31,051 bases of DNA, taken from IMG/VR virus record IMGVR_UViG_2909309443_000003; one strand, 5' to 3'. Position 1 is the stretch's first letter. Each line of letters begins with the position of its first letter. The DNA comes from a virus (taxonomy: Duplodnaviria; Heunggongvirae; Uroviricota; Caudoviricetes). The notes beneath the pieces were generated by a model that did not search any database, was not told the DNA's origin, and was given only the letters and a program-made list of their open reading frames with translations. The position numbers and the translations under genes were made by a program. Shown here piece after piece: positions 6,707-31,051 of the stretch.

Positions 6707-6760
6707 GAGAAATAACCCGGTAAAAAGTCGGGATCATGCCAGCTGAACGGAATATCTGCG

Positions 6761-6786
6761 TTTTCTAAAAGGTTGGTTTGGGGGAA
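6761..6786. repeat. hix/gix-like inversion crossover site (right boundary of invertible segment)
   Basis: TTTTCTAAAAGGTTGGTTTGGGGGAA is an inverted copy of 8567-8592 (20/26 identical, 13 of the last 14) and resembles the 26-bp hix/gix sites as I recall them. Confidence 0.7.
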
Positions 6787-7122
6787 TTGGCTCTGGCTGG
6801 CGCAACAACCGGCGCTATGTTGGTGAATGGGTATGTAGCAATTCCATTAATTATTTCTGGCGTTCGGAGACCACTTATTATCCAGTGGGGAGTGGGGCAG
6901 TTTGGGGGAAGTCTGGGGGATGATGCGGGATATTTAAACAATTTCCCTTTCGCTTTTCCGTCGGCGTGCTACGTGATGGTTGCCAGCCACGTGGGGCATA
7001 CACCTTCGGGTGCCGGAATACTATCTGCTTCCGCAATCACAAAAAGCGGCTTTCGTGGTTTTTCCAGCGTAGCGACTGCCGCAAATCCTGTATCGGGCTG
7101 TTATGTTGCTATAGGAGGGTGA
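6769..7122 (+). CDS. alternative tail-fibre C-terminal segment Hv' (silent orientation, no own start)
   Basis: Open frame from 6769 reads KVGLGELALAGATTG..., beginning with the same K-x-L-G-L-G-E junction encoded at the H crossover site; followed by its own assembly gene. Would fuse to the constant part of H after inversion. Confidence 0.65.
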   Translation, partial: KVGLGELALAGATTGAMLVNGYVAIPLIISGVRRPLIIQWGVGQFGGSLGDDAGYLNNFPFAFPSACYVMVASHVGHTPSGAGILSASAITKSGFRGFSSVATAANPVSGCYVAIGG

Positions 7123-7123
7123 T

Positions 7124-7558
7124 GTGTTTTTTAGTCCATCTTTAAATATTTTTGTGAATCCTGCGCTTAAGGATGACTACATCAATGTAAATTCATGGCC
7201 AGATGATGCTGTTGAAGTTGATGAGCAGGTGTATATTGAGTTTTCCGGATTACCGCCGAAAGGAAAAATCCGTATCGCTGGGGAAAATGGTTTTCCTGCA
7301 TGGTCTGAAATTCCACCACCAACGCATGAGGAACAGATTGCCGCAGCCGAATTGAAAAAACAGCAATTGATTAATCAGTCCAACGAATATATGAATACCA
7401 AGCAATGGCCTGGTAAAGCGGCTATTGGTCGTCTGAAAGGTGAGGAACTGGCGCAATATAATTTGTGGCTGGATTATCTGGACGCACTGGAACTGGTTGA
7501 TACCTCCAGTGCTCCAGATATTGAATGGCCTACGCCTCCGGCAGTTCAGGCCAGATGA
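7124..7558 (+). CDS. tail fibre assembly protein, alternative copy (Tfa')
   Basis: 144-aa ORF whose C-terminal motif (LWLDYLDALELVDTSSAPDIEWPTPP) parallels that of the minus-strand gene G; the two converge and overlap at their 3' ends. Confidence 0.75.
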   Translation: MFFSPSLNIFVNPALKDDYINVNSWPDDAVEVDEQVYIEFSGLPPKGKIRIAGENGFPAWSEIPPPTHEEQIAAAELKKQQLINQSNEYMNTKQWPGKAAIGRLKGEELAQYNLWLDYLDALELVDTSSAPDIEWPTPPAVQAR

Positions 7559-8123
7559 CATCCGGCGCGGTGCTCGTATCTGTTGCCGTCACCGCGTCAA
7601 TGTAATCAAGCACGGCGTTAAGCCGGGTGGTTTCTGCCTGCGTCAGCTTCCGCCCGGCCTGTAATTTCAGCTGAATCAGACTGATGGAAGCCATTGCAGC
7701 ATCAATCAGTGACTGGCGCTGTGCTTCTGCCGCTTCTACTGCGGCACCGTGTTGTGCCTCAGTATCTGTCACCCATTTCTCACCATCCCATTTATCATAT
7801 GGCGTTAACGGTGAAAGCGTGACATAACCGTTTTTGATGGCACCGATATAATCCACTGTAACAGCAGCACCATTTTCGATTGAGTAAACAGTCTCATTGC
7901 GATGGTCTTCTTCATGGCTCCATCCCTTACCTGTAAATACTGCCACTCTTCCCGGAATGTTTTCGCCAGGGTCAATACCAGTGGAACAGGCGGGCATACT
8001 TACGCCAGTATTAATATATTCATCAGACCAGCCCGTATACTCAGATGTTTCAGCATCATAATAAAAACAACGCATATCGCCCGGCACTGTAGCCAGCCCA
8101 TTTTCATCAAAAACAGGTTTCAT
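7530..8123 (-). CDS. G: tail fibre assembly protein (P2 gpG family)
   Basis: 197-aa ORF immediately downstream of H; C-terminal AVLDYIDAVTATDTSTAPDVIWPELP motif. Confidence 0.85.
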   Translation of the reverse strand: MKPVFDENGLATVPGDMRCFYYDAETSEYTGWSDEYINTGVSMPACSTGIDPGENIPGRVAVFTGKGWSHEEDHRNETVYSIENGAAVTVDYIGAIKNGYVTLSPLTPYDKWDGEKWVTDTEAQHGAAVEAAEAQRQSLIDAAMASISLIQLKLQAGRKLTQAETTRLNAVLDYIDAVTATDTSTAPDVIWPELPEA

Positions 8124-9187
8124 TATTTAGCCCTCACCAGAAAGTTAAATGCAATATTTCGCGGTCTGACAGCAACAAAATTCACACCATCACCCACAGA
8201 GTTACTGGTGAAATTAAATCGTGAAAATCCTGGCTGATTTCCGGCGATGCCATCATGAAAGTTAATTGCGTGTCCCGCACCTCCGCCTATATTCCCGGCA
8301 AACTGAGAAAAGTTTGTAGCTTCCTGCCAGCTTAATAATTCGCGACCACCATCGGCACCTCGCCCGTCATCCCAGATACGAATGAAATCACCGCGGGCTT
8401 CAGGTAATACCAGTGAAGGAAACACTTTCGCCAGCACAGGGTAATCAGAGGCAGAAAATTTCGCCCCGTTGAACTTCAAAAACACCATACTGGACCAGCT
8501 GTCGATTACAGTATTTGGCATTGCAGCGGACGGCCAGAAGAACGGAACGCCAATAGCTGGAGCACCTTCTCCCAAACCAAGGTTTTTAAGAACGTCGCCG
8601 GCCAGTCCCGCGTCAACCATTTCTTTCAGAGCATTAGCGATTAACGGGTACTGCTTGTGTGGATTGGCGGCCTCAACATGTTTTTTCATCAGGTCATCAG
8701 CATATCCTTTCACCTCGATAATCTTGTCGTCGACATACTGGCGCGTTGCCAGCACGACTGCCGGGTCGATTTTCAGGGTGATTGCCGATGTGCTCGACAC
8801 AATCAGAATCATGCGAATGGTCTGCGTGCGACCGCTTCCCTCCTGCAGTTGTGGCTTGTAGGTCTCCGGACAGTTCGCCACGGCAATCAGAATACCATCA
8901 TCGTCATAGAGACCAATCTCGCGGATCCAGAAACCACCTTCATTCTCGGGAATAATCTGTTCCGCGATAATCTGACTGGTATTGGCCGGGTCAACGGTCA
9001 GCAGGTTCAGCGGCGCGATGCGTTTCTGGTTAATGAGCTTCGTCTGCGCCGGGTCAGGGGTCGGCAACGTACCATTCGCATCACCGACGGCCATCTGCGT
9101 CAGGTTGAGTTTGGTACCGAGTGCCGCCGCGTTCGCCAGCCGCGCCGCGCCCTGATTGGTCAGAATGGCAAAATATTTTGCGGTCAT
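8123..9187 (-). CDS. H: tail fibre protein (P2 gpH family)
   Basis: 354-aa ORF; the N-terminal part (MAVGD..., GGFW.RE.GLYDD.G.LIAVAN, YKP.L.EGSGR, DDKI) matches the conserved P2 H N-terminus; the C-terminal 147 aa lie inside the invertible segment. Confidence 0.85.
   Translation of the reverse strand: MTAKYFAILTNQGAARLANAAALGTKLNLTQMAVGDANGTLPTPDPAQTKLINQKRIAPLNLLTVDPANTSQIIAEQIIPENEGGFWIREIGLYDDDGILIAVANCPETYKPQLQEGSGRTQTIRMILIVSSTSAITLKIDPAVVLATRQYVDDKIIEVKGYADDLMKKHVEAANPHKQYPLIANALKEMVDAGLAGDVLKNLGLGEGAPAIGVPFFWPSAAMPNTVIDSWSSMVFLKFNGAKFSASDYPVLAKVFPSLVLPEARGDFIRIWDDGRGADGGRELLSWQEATNFSQFAGNIGGGAGHAINFHDGIAGNQPGFSRFNFTSNSVGDGVNFVAVRPRNIAFNFLVRAK
8567..8592. repeat. hix/gix-like inversion crossover site inside H (left boundary of invertible segment)
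   Basis: TTCTCCCAAACCAAGGTTTTTAAGAA is close to the hixL consensus as I recall it (TTCTTGAAAACCAAGGTTTTTGATAA). It encodes VLKNLGLGEG of H on the minus strand, at the constant/variable junction. Confidence 0.75.
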
Positions 9188-11832: not shown

Positions 11833-12708
11833 ATGACTTTTAAATCTTTCGCTGCTGCAGCAATGAACAAAATTGATGCCATAAAACCAATAATACAATC
11901 CTTATGCAAAATGAAGCACGTGTTTATTATTTTTATTTTATATGCATTTGGCGTAACACTTGCCTCTATACACTATGGTAATTACAATGATTCATTCCTG
12001 TCTGGGTTCCTAATAAATGCAAATTCATCCATTTTGGATTTTTTTGTATTAGGTGTCATCCTTTATTGCTTTGAATACAGAAGACAAAACAAAGAAACGA
12101 TTAATGAACTTCTTGAGGATTTGGGAAACTTAGCTAAGCACGTTAATGTTGATTTGAAAATACAAAAAATAAAAATAATAAGACAGCTCAACAATAAAGG
12201 TGTCTTCAATATAGACATACCCAGAATGGAGTTGGGTGACCTTTTTACCATTAAATACTTACACTTTAAAACCTCAGAACTATCTGGGTTAAATATGGAA
12301 AAATCTAACATAAGAGACTGTTCTTTCACTGGATGTACAATCCAGGCATTAAATATTAGCAAGAGCAAAATGAAAAACGTAAAATTTATAAAGTGTAAAA
12401 TAAAAAATATTAAAGCTCAGGATTCAAAGTTAAACGGTGTTATTTTTGAAGGCTGCTATTTATATGGTGGGGATTTTTCCAATGCGGAAATGAAAAGTTG
12501 CGTACTCAGAGAGTGTGATTTGGATAAAGTGGAATACACCAATGCAAACCTTAGAAATGCCAACATAATCGATGCAAAAAATATTGACGTGAACAAACTT
12601 ATAGAAGCTAATACACTAGACTATATAGACTGTGATAGTGAAATAGAAAGACAAATCCTATCATCCAGACCAAACACGAAATTTACTAAACGATATTTAC
12701 GAGGCTAG
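11833..12708 (+). CDS. membrane-anchored pentapeptide-repeat protein (AT-rich cargo gene at the S/V junction)
   Basis: 291-aa ORF, opposite strand to the flanking late genes and visibly AT-rich. Two predicted TM helices (about residues 29-48 and 56-80). Residues about 162-255 form roughly 18 consecutive pentads with a hydrophobic residue at position 4 (NANLR, NANII, ECDLD, SCVLR, GGDFS). Confidence 0.7.
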   Translation: MTFKSFAAAAMNKIDAIKPIIQSLCKMKHVFIIFILYAFGVTLASIHYGNYNDSFLSGFLINANSSILDFFVLGVILYCFEYRRQNKETINELLEDLGNLAKHVNVDLKIQKIKIIRQLNNKGVFNIDIPRMELGDLFTIKYLHFKTSELSGLNMEKSNIRDCSFTGCTIQALNISKSKMKNVKFIKCKIKNIKAQDSKLNGVIFEGCYLYGGDFSNAEMKSCVLRECDLDKVEYTNANLRNANIIDAKNIDVNKLIEANTLDYIDCDSEIERQILSSRPNTKFTKRYLRG

Positions 12709-21660: not shown

Positions 21661-22665
21661 ATGGGCGCGGAGATTAATATTTTGGAAACTGATTTTAAAA
21701 TAACCCTCGAAGGTTTCGCTACTGAGCAAGAAGCAAATAATATCGGTAATTTCACACTAGAAGCTATCCGAGCTTTAACAAAGAATCTCAATCTTGATAT
21801 CTCCAAATTAAAATGCGTGATTGTTTCCTATAACTTCAGTGAAGCTCTTCAAAAGGTAACATCCTCTTACCAACACAAATCCCCTAGTTCATTTACCAAT
21901 AGCAAACAGGGCGCAGCCGTCGGGCAGTTAGTAACAAAAATTGGCAATGATGGGCTATATGAAGAATATACCCTTGTGCTATCGATTGATTTTTTTGTTG
22001 AGCTTTTCAATGATGGTAGCTTCTTAAAACTGAAAGAAGAAGGATACCTCGCAGTCATCCATCGCATTCACCATGAATTAGTGCACGTACATGAAAAAAA
22101 CTTACTAACATGCTTAGCCCAAAACTTTACAGTCAACGAGTATGGTAGCGCGCTTCTTATCTCAGCCACGCGTGCATGGTCTGAATATCTCGCTAATTAC
22201 ATGTCTTCGGGGTCTGCCCCTCAAGAAACTGTCGATTTATTTTTAGAGAATCTTGACACTGTTGTAAATGAAGTATCTGACGAGATTGAAAAACTCATCT
22301 GGGGTTATAAGTACGGTAATATTTCTCTGAATGACATGTATCTTGAAGTAAAAAAACGTATCAGGCTAATCATCAACTCTTATGCTTATGCGATGGGTTA
22401 TGTCCATTCTCTAAACATCAATATTAAAGAATACGATCCAAAGCTATCCCTTACACTATCCAACTCAAAGATAAGATATCAATTATCAGAATTAGGCATT
22501 GCTTTTCAGAATCTTTATGGGAAGTTTAATGACCAGCACATTACAGGTTTTGGTGATTTTCGGGAGATAACAATAATCATTGATGAAATATTCAAGCAGT
22601 TTGGGCTTGTTTTAGAGTGTCCCGATTGGTCTGGCGACGGTGAACTCTACATACATGTAAATTAG
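21661..22665 (+). CDS. HExxH-motif protein of unknown function (AT-rich cargo gene between Q and cos)
   Basis: 334-aa ORF, AT-rich relative to its flanks, with no TM segment or signal peptide. His-rich motif HHELVHVHE at residues 137-145 contains HExxH. Occupies the phage-end cargo position next to cos. Confidence 0.7.
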   Translation: MGAEINILETDFKITLEGFATEQEANNIGNFTLEAIRALTKNLNLDISKLKCVIVSYNFSEALQKVTSSYQHKSPSSFTNSKQGAAVGQLVTKIGNDGLYEEYTLVLSIDFFVELFNDGSFLKLKEEGYLAVIHRIHHELVHVHEKNLLTCLAQNFTVNEYGSALLISATRAWSEYLANYMSSGSAPQETVDLFLENLDTVVNEVSDEIEKLIWGYKYGNISLNDMYLEVKKRIRLIINSYAYAMGYVHSLNINIKEYDPKLSLTLSNSKIRYQLSELGIAFQNLYGKFNDQHITGFGDFREITIIIDEIFKQFGLVLECPDWSGDGELYIHVN

Positions 22666-28287: not shown

Positions 28288-28659
28288 TCAGTTAAGAGCG
28301 GTGCGCTGGTCGATGTAGCGACAATCAATCGCTTGTTGAGTCAGCTTATCGCGCCATGCTTTTACGTTTACGAGGGTTCGGCTTCGTTTAGCAGCTTCTT
28401 CTTTGTTGGAAAAGTCTTTGGTCGGAGCTTTGAGAAGGACTCCCTCATCGAGCCATTGCCAGACCAGACGCTCGCTAACACCGCGAGTAGCGGCGAAGTC
28501 TTTCACAGTCATCGTGTCTGACATAGCGGAGCGAATCATTGTCTGTAGAGCTGGCAGCATGGCGGTAACGATGGCATCAAACTGTGTTGGATCTAGCAGC
28601 ACAGTTTGATTTTGTGAGTTTTGCGAGTCGTGCGTCGAGATTGATTTTGCATCTGACAT
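28288..28659 (-). CDS. apl: Apl/Cox-like HTH excisionase-regulator, first gene of the lytic operon
   Basis: 123-aa ORF with AGGAGA about 9 nt upstream of the ATG at 28659. HTH-like segment VKDFAATRGVSERLVWQWLDEGV. Longer than the 186 Apl as I recall it (about 87 aa), so the start is uncertain. Confidence 0.6.
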   Translation of the reverse strand: MSDAKSISTHDSQNSQNQTVLLDPTQFDAIVTAMLPALQTMIRSAMSDTMTVKDFAATRGVSERLVWQWLDEGVLLKAPTKDFSNKEEAAKRSRTLVNVKAWRDKLTQQAIDCRYIDQRTALN

Positions 28660-28722
28660 ATCGCATTATCTCCTGTTGTTTGAAATGTAGTGCAGTGGTG
28701 TGCATCTTGGTCGATGAATGCC

Positions 28723-28751
28723 ACTATAGATCGTAAAAAGTTTTCTGTAAA
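28723..28751 (-). promoter_or_regulatory. candidate lytic promoter pR (TTTACA, 17-bp spacer, TATAGT)
   Basis: On the minus strand, -35 TTTACA (28751-28746) and -10 TATAGT (28728-28723) point toward apl from a position next to the cI start. Confidence 0.55.
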
Positions 28752-28780
28752 CACCCATAAAATTATCTGTAGGGGTTTTT

Positions 28781-29641
28781 ATGAGTTCTGAGCTTGATGT
28801 TCAGTGGCGTGTTAGTGCAACGAACGGCGTATTGGAACGCTTAATGTCAGCCTATGGGGTCAAGATGCAAAAGGATTTGGCTGACCTGCTAGGTATCGCT
28901 AAACACAGCGTTAGCGGCTGGGTTCAGCGTGATGCAATACCTGGCAATGTCATAGTTAGGTGTTGTCTTGACACGGGAGCTGATATCAATTGGCTTGTAA
29001 ATGGAGAACTTGCAAATGCAAATCACGAGCGAGCCAGTTGCAAGTTAAAAGGCAAAGAGCTTTATGACGAGATTATGACGAATGGTGGTAAAACCGTTTT
29101 GCGTAGGATTCTTGATGCGTATGGCTTTACCATGCAAAAGGAGCTCGGTGATTTGCTCGGCATTTCCTCTGGCACAATTAGCACATGGGTAAGGCGAGAT
29201 TTTTTCCCTGGTGATGTTGTTGTTACATGCGCTCTTGATACCGATACGTCACTGGAATGGTTAGCAACAGGCAAGGGGCAAATGCGAGCTAACAGGGAAG
29301 ATGTCACATCTGGTTTTTCTATTAAAAAATCTCGTCTTGAATCTGGTGAGCTTAAGGATGCAGGAACGTGGCATCCTGACCCCTCAATGATTCCTTCTAA
29401 CTCAGGGGAATTGATTTTTGTTGACGGTGTAGCTGCCTCTTGGCTTGTCGACTGTTCTGCTTCGAATATAAGTAATGGTCGCTGGTTAATTGATATCGAC
29501 GGCGCTCTTGATGTTTTTGATGTAATTCGCTTGCCCGGTGGAAAAGTCAGGTTGTCAAATAAGTCTGCTGAGTTTGAATGCAACATTACAGACATTACTC
29601 CTGCCGGGGCTGTAGTTTTCACATTGGAAAAACACGTGTAA
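28781..29641 (+). CDS. cI: CI-type immunity repressor with duplicated N-terminal DNA-binding domain
   Basis: 286-aa ORF with AGGGG upstream of the ATG. Residues 106-164 and the C-terminal domain resemble 186 CI as I recall it. Residues 17-75 are a second copy of the HTH domain (about 55% identical). Confidence 0.7.
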   Translation: MSSELDVQWRVSATNGVLERLMSAYGVKMQKDLADLLGIAKHSVSGWVQRDAIPGNVIVRCCLDTGADINWLVNGELANANHERASCKLKGKELYDEIMTNGGKTVLRRILDAYGFTMQKELGDLLGISSGTISTWVRRDFFPGDVVVTCALDTDTSLEWLATGKGQMRANREDVTSGFSIKKSRLESGELKDAGTWHPDPSMIPSNSGELIFVDGVAASWLVDCSASNISNGRWLIDIDGALDVFDVIRLPGGKVRLSNKSAEFECNITDITPAGAVVFTLEKHV

Positions 29642-29649
29642 GGGACATT

Positions 29650-29988
29650 ATGAAATGTAAACTCTTTTTAGCTCTGCTTCTTACCCTTTCTTTTGGAGCC
29701 TCAGCCGCTGAAAAAACACAGGATTTAGATGGCGCTAAGTTTGGTGAGGATTGGCCGTTAACTTTTGAAAAAGCTACGGTGTCTTGTGTCAACGGTAAAT
29801 ATGCCTTTGTGTACGACAAAGCAACAGATGACCGATACCCATTAAATGGTTTTGCGATTGATGGAGTAAAGTCTGGAAAGCTTGAGGGGAGCAATATTGA
29901 TACTGTTTGGAAAGATAGCCCGGAGTATGCAGGCGTAAAAATTCCTTTGGATCCTGTAATGGATGCTGCAACAGCACTTTGGGAATAA
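29650..29988 (+). CDS. small secreted/periplasmic protein of unknown function
   Basis: Track ORF trimmed to the ATG at 29650 with AGGGA upstream. MKCKLFLALLLTLSFGASAAEK is a typical Sec signal peptide; mature part about 90 aa. Confidence 0.6.
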   Translation: MKCKLFLALLLTLSFGASAAEKTQDLDGAKFGEDWPLTFEKATVSCVNGKYAFVYDKATDDRYPLNGFAIDGVKSGKLEGSNIDTVWKDSPEYAGVKIPLDPVMDAATALWE

Positions 29989-30010
29989 TTAGAGTTGCCT
30001 CGGTGACATT

Positions 30011-31051
30011 ATGACTGTAAGTAAGCAAAAAAATGGCAAATGGTTATGCGAGCTCTATCCAAATGGTCGAGAAGGGCGGCGTATACGTCGGCAATTCAAT
30101 ACCAAAGGTGAGGCCGAGGCATTCGAAGCATTTACGAAAAGTGAGAGTGAGGATAAGCCGTGGCTCGGCAAGAAAGAAGACCGCCGACGCTTAAGTGAGA
30201 TTATCCAGCTTTGGCATAATTTACACGGACAGGCACTGGTCGCCAGTAAGTCGCGGTTAGCTAAACTTCAAATCGTGTGTAATGGACTTGGTGACCCTAT
30301 TGCATCCCGCCTTACTGCTAAAGATTGGGCTCATTACCGTGACCGCCGACTTCGGGGGGAGATAGATAATGGCTATCATAAAGACCCGGCAAAATGGATT
30401 GCTAAACCGATAACTGTCAATCGTGAGCAACAATATCTTGAGGCTGTATTTAATGAGCTCAAAAGGCTAGGGGAGTGGAGCTTACCAAATCCACTTGATG
30501 GAGTCCGTGTTTTCAAGGAAGCCGAGAAAGAAATGTCTTGGCTCACTTTGTCTCAAATTCCGAAATTGTTTCAGGCATGCGAGCAATACGGAAAAGAAGA
30601 CCTCACCATGATTGTTAAGATTTGTCTTGCAACAGGTGCTAGATGGGGTGAGGCTGAGAGGTTGACACGTCCCCAGCTCTCGCCACATAAACTGACCTTC
30701 ACCAAAACGAAAGGGAAAAAGAATCGAACCGTTCCGATCCCAAAATGGTTGTATGACGAATTATCTGAAAGGCAGGGAAAGATGTTTAAGCCTTGCTATC
30801 AGGAGTTTAAAAAGATGCTCAAACTAACGGATATCGAACTGACGGAAGGGCAAAAGACACACGTTCTGCGTCATACCTTCGGCGCTCATTTTATGATGAA
30901 TGGCGGGAATATTCTTGTGCTGCAACGTATACTCGGTCATGCGAATATTCGTGAAACTATGAAGTATGCACATTTCTCCCCGGATCATCTTGAGGAGGCT
31001 GTAACATTTAATCCTTTAACATTATGTAATGGTTTTAAATGGAAAGATTAA
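30011..31051 (+). CDS. int: tyrosine integrase
   Basis: 346-aa ORF with a C-terminal catalytic region typical of tyrosine recombinases (LRHTFG, HANIRETMKYAH); last gene before the prophage end; stop at 31049-31051. Confidence 0.85.
   Translation: MTVSKQKNGKWLCELYPNGREGRRIRRQFNTKGEAEAFEAFTKSESEDKPWLGKKEDRRRLSEIIQLWHNLHGQALVASKSRLAKLQIVCNGLGDPIASRLTAKDWAHYRDRRLRGEIDNGYHKDPAKWIAKPITVNREQQYLEAVFNELKRLGEWSLPNPLDGVRVFKEAEKEMSWLTLSQIPKLFQACEQYGKEDLTMIVKICLATGARWGEAERLTRPQLSPHKLTFTKTKGKKNRTVPIPKWLYDELSERQGKMFKPCYQEFKKMLKLTDIELTEGQKTHVLRHTFGAHFMMNGGNILVLQRILGHANIRETMKYAHFSPDHLEEAVTFNPLTLCNGFKWKD

Follow-up and report, generated by a model that had tools for sequence, protein, structure and literature searches.

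Introduction

As reported, the Escherichia coli DUF2511 protein YebY is a monomer, was located experimentally to the periplasm, and carries a Cys48-Cys113 disulfide; mutating either C48 or C113 abolished expression and left the protein undetectable, and its weak copper binding requires reduction of the disulfide (PMC8689200). YebY lowers the copper import and accumulation that depend on YebZ, and the AZY operon ties copper to mar-dependent resistance (PMC11923076). A second relative, MlbQ, has been proposed as a binder of NAI-107, acting in self-resistance to a lipid-II-binding lantibiotic (PMC8689200). The 2021 paper on E. coli YebY had also remarked on DUF2511 genes lying between a CI repressor and a recombinase (PMC8689200). 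Beyond this remark, the literature that we searched contained nothing on phage copies of the family, and reports on the PSP3/Eganvirus regulatory region were silent on the gene. In this study, we analyzed one such gene, located between the repressor gene cI and the integrase gene int of a 31,051-nucleotide (nt) stretch of viral DNA (IMG/VR record IMGVR_UViG_2909309443_000003), which is referred to in its entirety as the window.

Collectively, our results indicate that this gene is an accessory DUF2511 cassette of the PSP3 gp28 type, and it is best explained overall, with a probability of roughly 0.55, as encoding a periplasmic binder or inhibitor expressed in the lysogen. The identity of the gene, its location, and its membership of the lysogenic operon are highly probable from these comparisons; the binding or inhibiting mechanism is a tentative proposal drawn by analogy. 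The annotation of the gene, the structure of its family, and the CI repressor-recombinase context in print are already known (PMC8689200). What is new is how widely repressor genes are paired with DUF2511 in P2-like prophages, the cassette behavior of the gene within a variable cargo slot between cI and int, and the loss of a disulfide cysteine in the lineage of the window together with a frameshift in sister prophages.

Family assignment and predicted fold

Based on profile comparisons, the product of the gene is assigned to the DUF2511/YebY family. It matches Pfam DUF2511 (PF10709) with E = 4.5e-16 (score 59.5 bits, gathering cut-off 21; profile positions 5-86 of 87 covered) and phrog_2950, a PHROG family of unassigned function, with E = 1.3e-51. 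The single sequence match in the PDB is E. coli YebY (7N0J), with E = 3.4e-6, or 1.1e-10 when a profile of phage homologues was used. NCBIfam yielded no match for this protein. In an alignment of 146 family sequences (A3), consisting of the window protein and 145 search representatives, the near-invariant positions G32, W35, P36, Y63, N66, G67, A69, W87, and P91 are all retained in the window protein, and phrog_2950 is the sole PHROG domain match in 146 of the 146 members. A profile search of 1.84 billion representatives returned 770 family clusters at E <= 1e-3, only one of which lies below 1e-30; thus, the PSP3-type proteins form a tight subgroup. The preliminary description had left the product as a protein of unknown function, a label that gives way to a family with a solved structure (7N0J), two studied relatives, a PSP3 gp28 orthologue, and a RefSeq annotation. 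The window protein is a family member by descent, present as an atypical allele.

The predicted mature protein comprises 93 amino acids (aa), with a mass of 10.2 kDa and an isoelectric point of 4.4 (ProtParam). Its AlphaFold2 model is of moderate quality, with a mean predicted local distance difference test (pLDDT) score of 66 and a predicted template modeling (TM) score of 0.59, and it adopts the YebY/MlbQ fold, a four-stranded antiparallel sheet packed with helices. The sole significant Foldseek matches of the model are YebY and, after it, MlbQ; for YebY 7N0J, the probability is 1.0, the TM scores are 0.62/0.71, and E = 1.6e-5 at 29% identity.

Recent capture of the host yebY gene was considered and rejected on account of this low identity and because the best-scoring representatives, where sampled, are other mobile-element copies. 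Plasmid records yielded a single close match (74%), in a Klebsiella entry of 5.4 Mb, and nine weak ones (31-34% identity); of the weak matches, six are in records of 1-5 Mb and three are annotated as YebY family. One of two proteomics mentions of DUF2511 refers to the chromosomal YebY.

The gene and its place in the lysogenic operon

The window is a PSP3-like prophage of E. coli (Eganvirus, P2/186-type). By megablast, Salmonella phage PSP3, SEN1, and Escherichia phage vB_EcoM-613R3 share 89-93% identity with the region, and Midge, SW9, SI22, and Klebsiella phage RCIP0057 are more distant kin; all of these phages are P2/186-type and, where a genus is assigned, Eganvirus. The chromosome of E. 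coli S3 carries an identical DUF2511 gene, cI, and int, adjoining yfiB/dgcN, and the gene is annotated there as WP_001394631.1, 'DUF2511 domain-containing protein'. The PSP3 counterpart is orf28/gp28. The open reading frame (ORF) is a real gene that RefSeq already lists as a DUF2511 protein, and it was found in 44 of 5426 complete E. coli genomes, chromosomal in every case.

The frame at 29650-29988 (+) is open from ATG 29650 to TAA 29986-29988 and contains 112 codons and the stop. It begins 8 nt past the stop codon of cI, and int starts 22 nt past its own stop. Upstream, the sequence reads GTG-TAA-GGGACATT-ATG, in which the cI stop codon forms part of a Shine-Dalgarno-like element. To set this arrangement against its relatives, we assembled a related set of 75 loci, consisting of the window and 74 fetched loci from phage records, E. 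coli genomes, two GTDB genomes, and 65 IMG/VR contigs; the species-representative genomes of GTDB yielded only these two loci, and IMG/VR was used instead. The MK... start codon is present in 75 of the 75 loci, the TAAGG(G/A) element is retained in nearly all of them, and the product has 112-113 aa in all but one frameshifted locus. The preliminary description had proposed a 112-aa ORF with a good ribosome-binding site between the repressor and integrase genes; its coordinates proved exact, the TAAGGGA element 4 nt from the ATG is the conserved one, and the Pfam matches of both neighbors on the same strand place the gene where it was said to be. A longer version from ATG 29578 (136 aa), present in the program-made ORF list, was rejected because it overlaps the 3' end of cI in another frame and because the MK start with its Shine-Dalgarno element is universal in the related set. 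Two antisense ORFs (29619-29894 and 29789-30028) were set aside since the + frame has the Pfam match and a low ratio of nonsynonymous to synonymous substitution rates (dN/dS).

The repressor upstream matches Phage_CI_repr (E = 1.3e-52, in two stretches that correspond to two helix-turn-helix (HTH) domains) and Phage_CI_C (E = 1e-20), and it is ~98% identical to PSP3 CI. The integrase downstream matches Int_N (E = 3.9e-31) and Phage_integrase (E = 2.9e-20). The opposite strand carries an apl/cox-like gene, cII (Phage_CP76), and, farther off, a P2 A-type replication gene. A predicted promoter-like site on that strand occupies the position that corresponds to pR of phage 186.

The order cI, DUF2511, int is maintained on one strand in all 75 loci, the gap between the cI stop and the ATG being 8-9 nt in 73 loci and that between the DUF2511 stop and the int ATG 21-25 nt in 69 loci. 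A consensus scan of 28300-31051 revealed no + strand promoter-like site, and no + strand terminator-like site before or within the ORF; the only two such terminator-like sites are both in int (30520 and 30868). The strict scan did not detect the pL promoter. In the phage 186 record, the 'lysogenic operon' consists of pL/pE, cI, int, orf69, and a predicted terminator, and cI abuts int; therefore, PSP3-type phages carry an insertion within the lysogenic operon. As predicted from the sequence, the DUF2511 gene has the arrangement of a 186-type operon member, on the strand of cI and int and with neither a promoter nor a terminator in between. From the short gaps, the lack of an intervening promoter-like or terminator-like site, and the analogy with phage 186, we infer that it is co-transcribed with cI and int in the lysogen. 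Transcription would start at the lysogenic promoters, namely pL and, during establishment, pE. Moreover, since the Shine-Dalgarno element overlaps the cI stop codon, the gene is probably translated in step with the repressor, that is, translationally coupled to cI.

Predicted export of the protein

The N-terminus can be divided into an n-region (MKCK), an h-region (LFLALLLTLSF), and a c-region (GASA), followed by AEK. Residues 5-16 have a mean Kyte-Doolittle hydropathy of 2.36, small residues occupy positions -3 and -1, and a lipobox is absent. The three regions, the -3/-1 rule, and the lipobox were judged by manual reading. Among the 49 distinct phage proteins, the cleavage position and the AEK mature N-terminus are the same in nearly all alleles; thus, the clear Sec signal peptide noted earlier holds, with an ASA/AEK site kept across alleles. 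The protein is accordingly predicted to carry a signal peptide and to be extracytoplasmic. Sec would export it, cleavage would follow Ala19, and the product would be a soluble ~10-kDa protein of the periplasm.

An accessory cassette in a variable cargo slot

Identity of the DUF2511 protein to the window copy ranges from 45% to 100% and falls into discrete classes. In some classes, the 5' part of the adjoining int is 95-100% identical, and identity falls exactly across the DUF2511 ORF; furthermore, DUF2511 classes reassort with cI classes between conserved flanks. The gene is thus an accessory cassette between cI and int. Purifying selection on the protein is clear from a comparison of 53 distinct nucleotide alleles, which gave dN/dS values of 0.12-0.18 across the whole gene and 0.09-0.16 across the mature part.

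To survey the interval itself, 80 IMG/VR loci were picked by similarity to cI, independently of DUF2511. The DUF2511 gene lies between cI and int in 60 of the 80. Among the other 20, one stops at cI, which makes it uninformative, a second lacks a detectable int, a third shows a 451-nt gap without a clear + strand ORF, and four have an empty slot; most of the remainder contain a secreted protein of 130-137 aa (phrog_3807), a membrane+WYL protein of 187-201 aa, or a membrane protein of 279 aa. Some loci hold two cargo genes, either the phrog_3807 protein with DUF2511 or DUF2511 with a bPH+SHOCT protein. The cI-int interval is hence a variable cargo slot. The suggestion that this interval houses accessory cargo in related prophages, which the preliminary description had proposed to check by comparing it among them, is borne out, as the position is kept and the content varies.

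Several of the alternative cargo genes were located. The phrog_3807 proteins have a signal peptide and no Pfam match and occur alone or with DUF2511 (L009 3570-3974, L097 3373-3765, L115 3335-3739, and L122 3382-3795; L numbers denote loci). The WYL proteins, which stand in place of DUF2511, combine a hydrophobic N-terminal region that is predicted to span the membrane with a C-terminal WYL domain (L111 3322-3885, L133 3361-3924, L145 3389-3988, and L148 3347-3952). A 168-aa bPH_3 + SHOCT protein lies between DUF2511 and int at L049 4355-4861 and also in L050-L052.

These observations bear on a role of the gene in the phage's own life cycle, such as the establishment or maintenance of lysogeny, the tuning of int via translational coupling, or lysis and induction. 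Its location inside a regulatory operon, the tight and conserved spacing to cI and int, and its retention in very divergent P2-like prophages would suit such a role. However, the gene is absent or replaced by a different one in 186, in P2, and in about a quarter of the cI-related loci, four slots are empty, and an exported periplasmic protein would be an improbable regulator of cytoplasmic recombination or transcription. Because phages 186 and P2 and a quarter of the cI relatives do without the gene, we consider an own-cycle role very improbable.

Pairing with repressors beyond the PSP3 group

To describe the more distant relatives, we sampled eleven from the matches of a profile (A4) built on more distant family members. 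The profile begins with the Yersinia protein P0020, which shares 35% identity with the window protein; against P0020, the relatives show ~27-100% identity. Eight, in P2-like or related prophages, have a repressor-type gene immediately upstream and/or int immediately downstream, and at least four repressor types are represented among them: 186-type CI with a single HTH, HTH_3, HTH_31, and ORFs without a Pfam match. One relative (P0265) belongs to a module of this kind and lies directly before int, but an oppositely oriented HTH_Tnp_1 transposase-type gene separates it from the genes upstream. Three relatives are found, one each, at the end of a P2-like phage contig beside gpD, beside RecT/YqaJ genes, and on a mobilisable element adjoining a SMODS gene. 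Overall, the repressor-DUF2511 pairing is much broader than the PSP3 group, reaching relatives of only ~30-40% identity that follow three or more other types of repressor, and extends beyond the one-sentence remark in the literature. This breadth provides the strongest indirect evidence of selection for expression in the lysogen. Many P2-like prophages, from Escherichia, Salmonella, Klebsiella, Enterobacter, Pantoea, and Yersinia, have the gene beside the repressor. Perhaps DUF2511 is a widespread second gene of the lysogeny-maintenance operon in P2-like (Peduoviridae) and related prophages, retained immediately behind at least four repressor types while diverging to ~30% identity, and defines a new class of soluble periplasmic factors, for exclusion of or immunity to envelope-acting agents or for reprogramming host copper uptake and hence mar-dependent resistance; we regard this broader generalization as speculative and more probably wrong than right.

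A Flk_N protein accompanies DUF2511 in three of the repressor-int modules, P0225, P0238, and the transposon-interrupted P0265. In another prophage type, the repressor-int module combines DUF2511 with a Flk_N-domain protein of 213-216 aa (L161 4364-5005, L162 3321-3971, and L164 1976-2626).

The family relationship with YebY raises the alternative that the protein modulates copper uptake, acting like YebY on the host YebZ (CopD)/YobA (CopC) pair and thereby lowering copper entry and mar induction. The Pfam family and the fold are common to YebY, the AZY operon is present in E. coli hosts, and YebY co-expressed with YebZ lowers copper accumulation, with a link from the operon to mar (PMC11923076). 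In contrast, identity to YebY is only ~29%, no copper genes adjoin any phage copy or sampled relative, and YebY itself binds copper weakly, after disulfide reduction (PMC8689200). Moreover, the best-scoring profile representatives, where sampled, belong to prophages or mobile elements, the YebY-like one scoring well below them, and the window protein keeps the near-invariant W87 of the family, whereas the aligned E. coli YebY has no Trp at this position (HMMER). The low identity, the phage-only neighborhood, and the mobile-element origin of the best-scoring relatives sampled make the copper version the weaker one, and we consider it distinctly unlikely.

The C111W allele of the window lineage

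The predicted window protein retains C46 and has Trp in place of the second disulfide cysteine, at residue 111. This is a feature on which the preliminary description, sound in its ORF, ribosome-binding site, signal peptide, and position, was silent. Among the 49 distinct phage proteins, W111 is confined to the window lineage, and the other 48 have Cys; the codon is TGC in PSP3 and 613R3 and TGT in Midge. Cys occupies this position in at least 90% of the 146 sequences in the A3 family alignment. A script check marked the second cysteine as missing from 7 of 148 search representatives, but on reading, five of these end in ...LC or ...EC followed by at most two residues, which leaves two genuine exceptions (P0097 and P0152). 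The window allele also carries R3C in the n-region of the signal peptide, a change that is removed upon cleavage.

The intact W111 protein was found on at least 1000 public contigs in two variants, as well as in 12 complete E. coli genomes; the substitution is therefore inherited and not a sequencing error. Its dN/dS against the nearest C111 allele is 0.15, which is unremarkable. Seven of the 44 E. coli genomes fall in the 95-99% identity band, and the six listed match over 329 bp rather than 339 bp. One copy of this kind, from strain Ecol_545 (L005), shows a 10-bp deletion in the invariant RYPLN motif of a gene that otherwise matches the window W111 allele, with identical cI and int proteins, and is annotated by RefSeq as a frameshifted pseudogene. 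These alleles suggest relaxed constraint in the window prophage lineage. By removing the partner of Cys46, the C111W substitution probably destabilizes the protein; in the W111 allele, the fold-stabilizing disulfide would be lost, and the protein may be inactive.

The gene could thus be a decaying remnant in the window, already disabled by C111W and persisting as an ORF only because it lies between two selected genes. The near-universal C111, absent from only two of 148 representatives, the abolished expression of YebY upon mutation of either cysteine (PMC8689200), the pseudogene inspected among the six shortened copies, and R3C in the n-region are consistent with such decay. However, the intact W111 protein is abundant and occurs in two variants, its dN/dS against the nearest C111 allele is not raised, and P0097 and P0152 likewise lack Cys at this position; given this abundance and the dN/dS value, loss of function is a possibility only. 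Decay in the window lineage would, moreover, be compatible with function of the C111 alleles. We regard the remnant explanation as possible but doubtful. The natural C111W and frameshift alleles are ready controls for the importance of the disulfide.

Proposed function in the lysogen

Based on the analogy with MlbQ, which acts in lantibiotic self-resistance, and with YebY, which restrains the YebZ/YobA importer, together with the kinds of cargo found in the slot, we propose that the protein may act in the lysogen as a small periplasmic binder or inhibitor that neutralizes an envelope-acting agent to the benefit of the lysogen. The most likely benefit would be of the immunity or exclusion type, directed against a component of an incoming phage, a bacteriocin, or an effector.

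Superinfection exclusion or anti-phage defense, in which a DNA-entry step is blocked, for example at the tail lysozyme or the tape-measure/injection machinery, is the likeliest specific version of this proposal, while standing by itself on the unlikely side. The gene directly follows the repressor gene, so that expression in the lysogen is expected, and this placement is kept across several repressor types; the slot also holds other envelope proteins and a membrane+WYL protein, one distant relative adjoins a SMODS gene, and deep allele classes reassort between near-identical flanks. In contrast, dN/dS is ~0.1, with no sign of diversifying selection, PADLOC gives no match, and most described exclusion proteins are membrane-anchored. 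A weak match to phrog_4980 ('superinfection exclusion') in 2 of the 146 family members was dropped as a candidate: it was not located among the ten multi-domain members and probably lies in N-terminal extensions.

Several points weigh against a periplasmic binder or inhibitor. In the literature searched, we found neither transcript or protein data nor a phenotype for any DUF2511 protein from a phage. PADLOC-DB returned no family at E <= 0.1 for the window protein, and the strong purifying selection, without a sign of positive selection, is unusual for an exclusion factor in an arms race. The structural model is only moderate, with residues 67-83 below a pLDDT of 50. The presence of W111 on so many contigs in two variants implies that the substitution is tolerated and may not inactivate the protein. 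To our knowledge, the exclusion proteins described so far are mostly membrane proteins or lipoproteins rather than soluble proteins of the periplasm, and we know of no DUF2511 protein with an exclusion phenotype.

If the binder or inhibitor proposal is true, whether by phage exclusion, by blocking a bacteriocin or effector, or by altered copper import, the protein would be a common and cheaply assayed lysogenic-conversion factor. The new parts pose a well-defined and inexpensive experimental question and would not surprise a specialist.

Other features of the window

The features of the locus are collected in Table 1.

Table 1. Coordinates of features at the cI-DUF2511-int locus of the window
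Feature	Position	Strand	Basis
DUF2511/YebY-family gene, PSP3 gp28 orthologue	29650..29988	+	Pfam, PHROG, PDB, Foldseek, dN/dS
Predicted Sec (signal peptidase I) signal peptide, residues 1-19 (MKCKLFLALLLTLSFGASA), predicted cleavage before AEK	29650..29706	+	Manual reading
Mature domain, predicted YebY-like alpha/beta fold	29707..29985	+	ProtParam, AlphaFold2, Foldseek
Cys46 codon TGT, equivalent of YebY Cys48	29785..29787	+	Invariant in the A3 alignment (146 sequences)
Trp111 codon TGG, equivalent of YebY Cys113	29980..29982	+	Alignment; profile to the terminal Cys of YebY
Shine-Dalgarno-like TAAGGGA, including the cI stop TAA, 4 nt before the ATG	29639..29645	+	Read from the sequence
Immunity repressor gene cI (286 aa), at the head of the lysogenic operon	28781..29641	+	Pfam
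Tyrosine integrase, 346 aa, last operon gene inside the window	30011..31051	+	Pfam
Promoter-like TTTACA-17-TATAGT, candidate pR, towards the apl/cox-like early lytic operon	28723..28751	-	Consensus scan

The window CI contains a tandem duplicate of the Phage_CI_repr HTH, with 286 aa against 192 aa in phage 186; in a Yersinia relative that also carries DUF2511, CI has a single HTH (194 aa). The 3' two-thirds of int (30220-31051) share only ~80% DNA identity with all relatives, and the 5' end shares 95-100%; the window integrase is 346 aa long, compared with 349 aa for those of relatives. The E. coli S3 chromosome has an additional hypothetical gene of 810 nt that separates int from yfiB. The divergence of the int 3' part, the length difference, and the extra S3 gene (window 30220-31051 and L004 5402-6328) suggest a different att/int specificity module.

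Elsewhere, positions 6759-8594 form a probable invertible tail-fibre segment, whose arms (6759-6798 and 8555-8594) are 40-nt inverted repeats with a TTCTCCCAAACCAAGG core. These repeats resemble the Gin/Cin/Pin crossover sites. They flank an alternative fibre C-terminus (6778-7122, +, Gp53-like_C) and a tail-fibre assembly gene (7124-7558, +), and on the opposite strand a G-like tail-fibre assembly ORF (7530-8123, -) and the 3' part of an H-like tail-fibre ORF (8123-9187, -); there is no ORF of invertase size near the segment. A 291-aa pentapeptide-repeat protein is encoded at 11833-12708 (+), antisense within the late tail/lysis block, with no PADLOC match; the gene is moron-like and apparently occupies a P2 orf30-type slot. 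A 334-aa ORF at 21661-22665 (+), following the portal (Q-like) gene, has no Pfam or PADLOC match and is apparently located at the P2 old/tin-type cargo position.

Comparison with known systems

Prophage cargo co-expressed with the repressor, and exclusion proteins acting at the periplasm or envelope, are exemplified by lambda rexAB, T4 Sp, T5 Llp, and phi80/N15 Cor. The DUF2511 gene resembles these in its place beside the repressor and in the predicted envelope location of its product, whereas there is no kinship in sequence or fold, and those proteins are mostly membrane proteins or lipoproteins.

The likeness to MlbQ of Microbispora (PDB 2MVO/6QFP) lies in the fold (Foldseek probability 1.0, TM ~0.55), the WPLT...C motif, and the character of a small extracytoplasmic protein thought to bind an envelope-acting agent. 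In contrast, identity is ~21%, and MlbQ is an actinomycete lipoprotein with a long linker and ABC-transporter neighbors; the window protein has no L-x-x-C lipobox, its only N-terminal Cys is residue 3, and no transporter genes are nearby, so it is not a resistance lipoprotein of the MlbQ type.

YebY shares the Pfam family, the fold, a Sec signal peptide, the ~10-kDa size of a periplasmic monomer (as found for YebY), and the conserved W35, C46, and YPLN motif. The differences are the ~29% identity and the neighborhood, the copper-uptake operon yobA-yebZ-yebY, with yebY in third place after copC/copD genes, versus the lysogenic operon of the window prophage. Furthermore, YebY has the Cys48-Cys113 disulfide and no Trp at the W87 position, and the window allele shows the opposite. 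YebY in the strict sense is encoded with copC/yobA and copD/yebZ, and the gene described here, flanked by cI and int in 75 of 75 loci, is therefore not YebY in that sense.

For phage 186, the genome plan agrees at the genus level: the switch promoters are convergent, cII, fil, and apl-like genes are present, and cI shares its strand with int. In 186, cI adjoins int without a gap gene and CI has a single HTH, whereas in the window, DUF2511 is inserted and the HTH of cI is duplicated. The closest counterpart is PSP3 gp28, which also has 112 aa, lies between cI and int, and is 92% identical over the full protein (~96% over residues 21-112). The PSP3 gp28/phrog_2950 set comprises PSP3, SEN1, SW9, SI22, Midge, RCIP0057, and vB_EcoM-613R3, with flanking DNA 89-93% identical, and its members have Cys at 111 and R or H at 3, whereas the window allele has W111 and C3.

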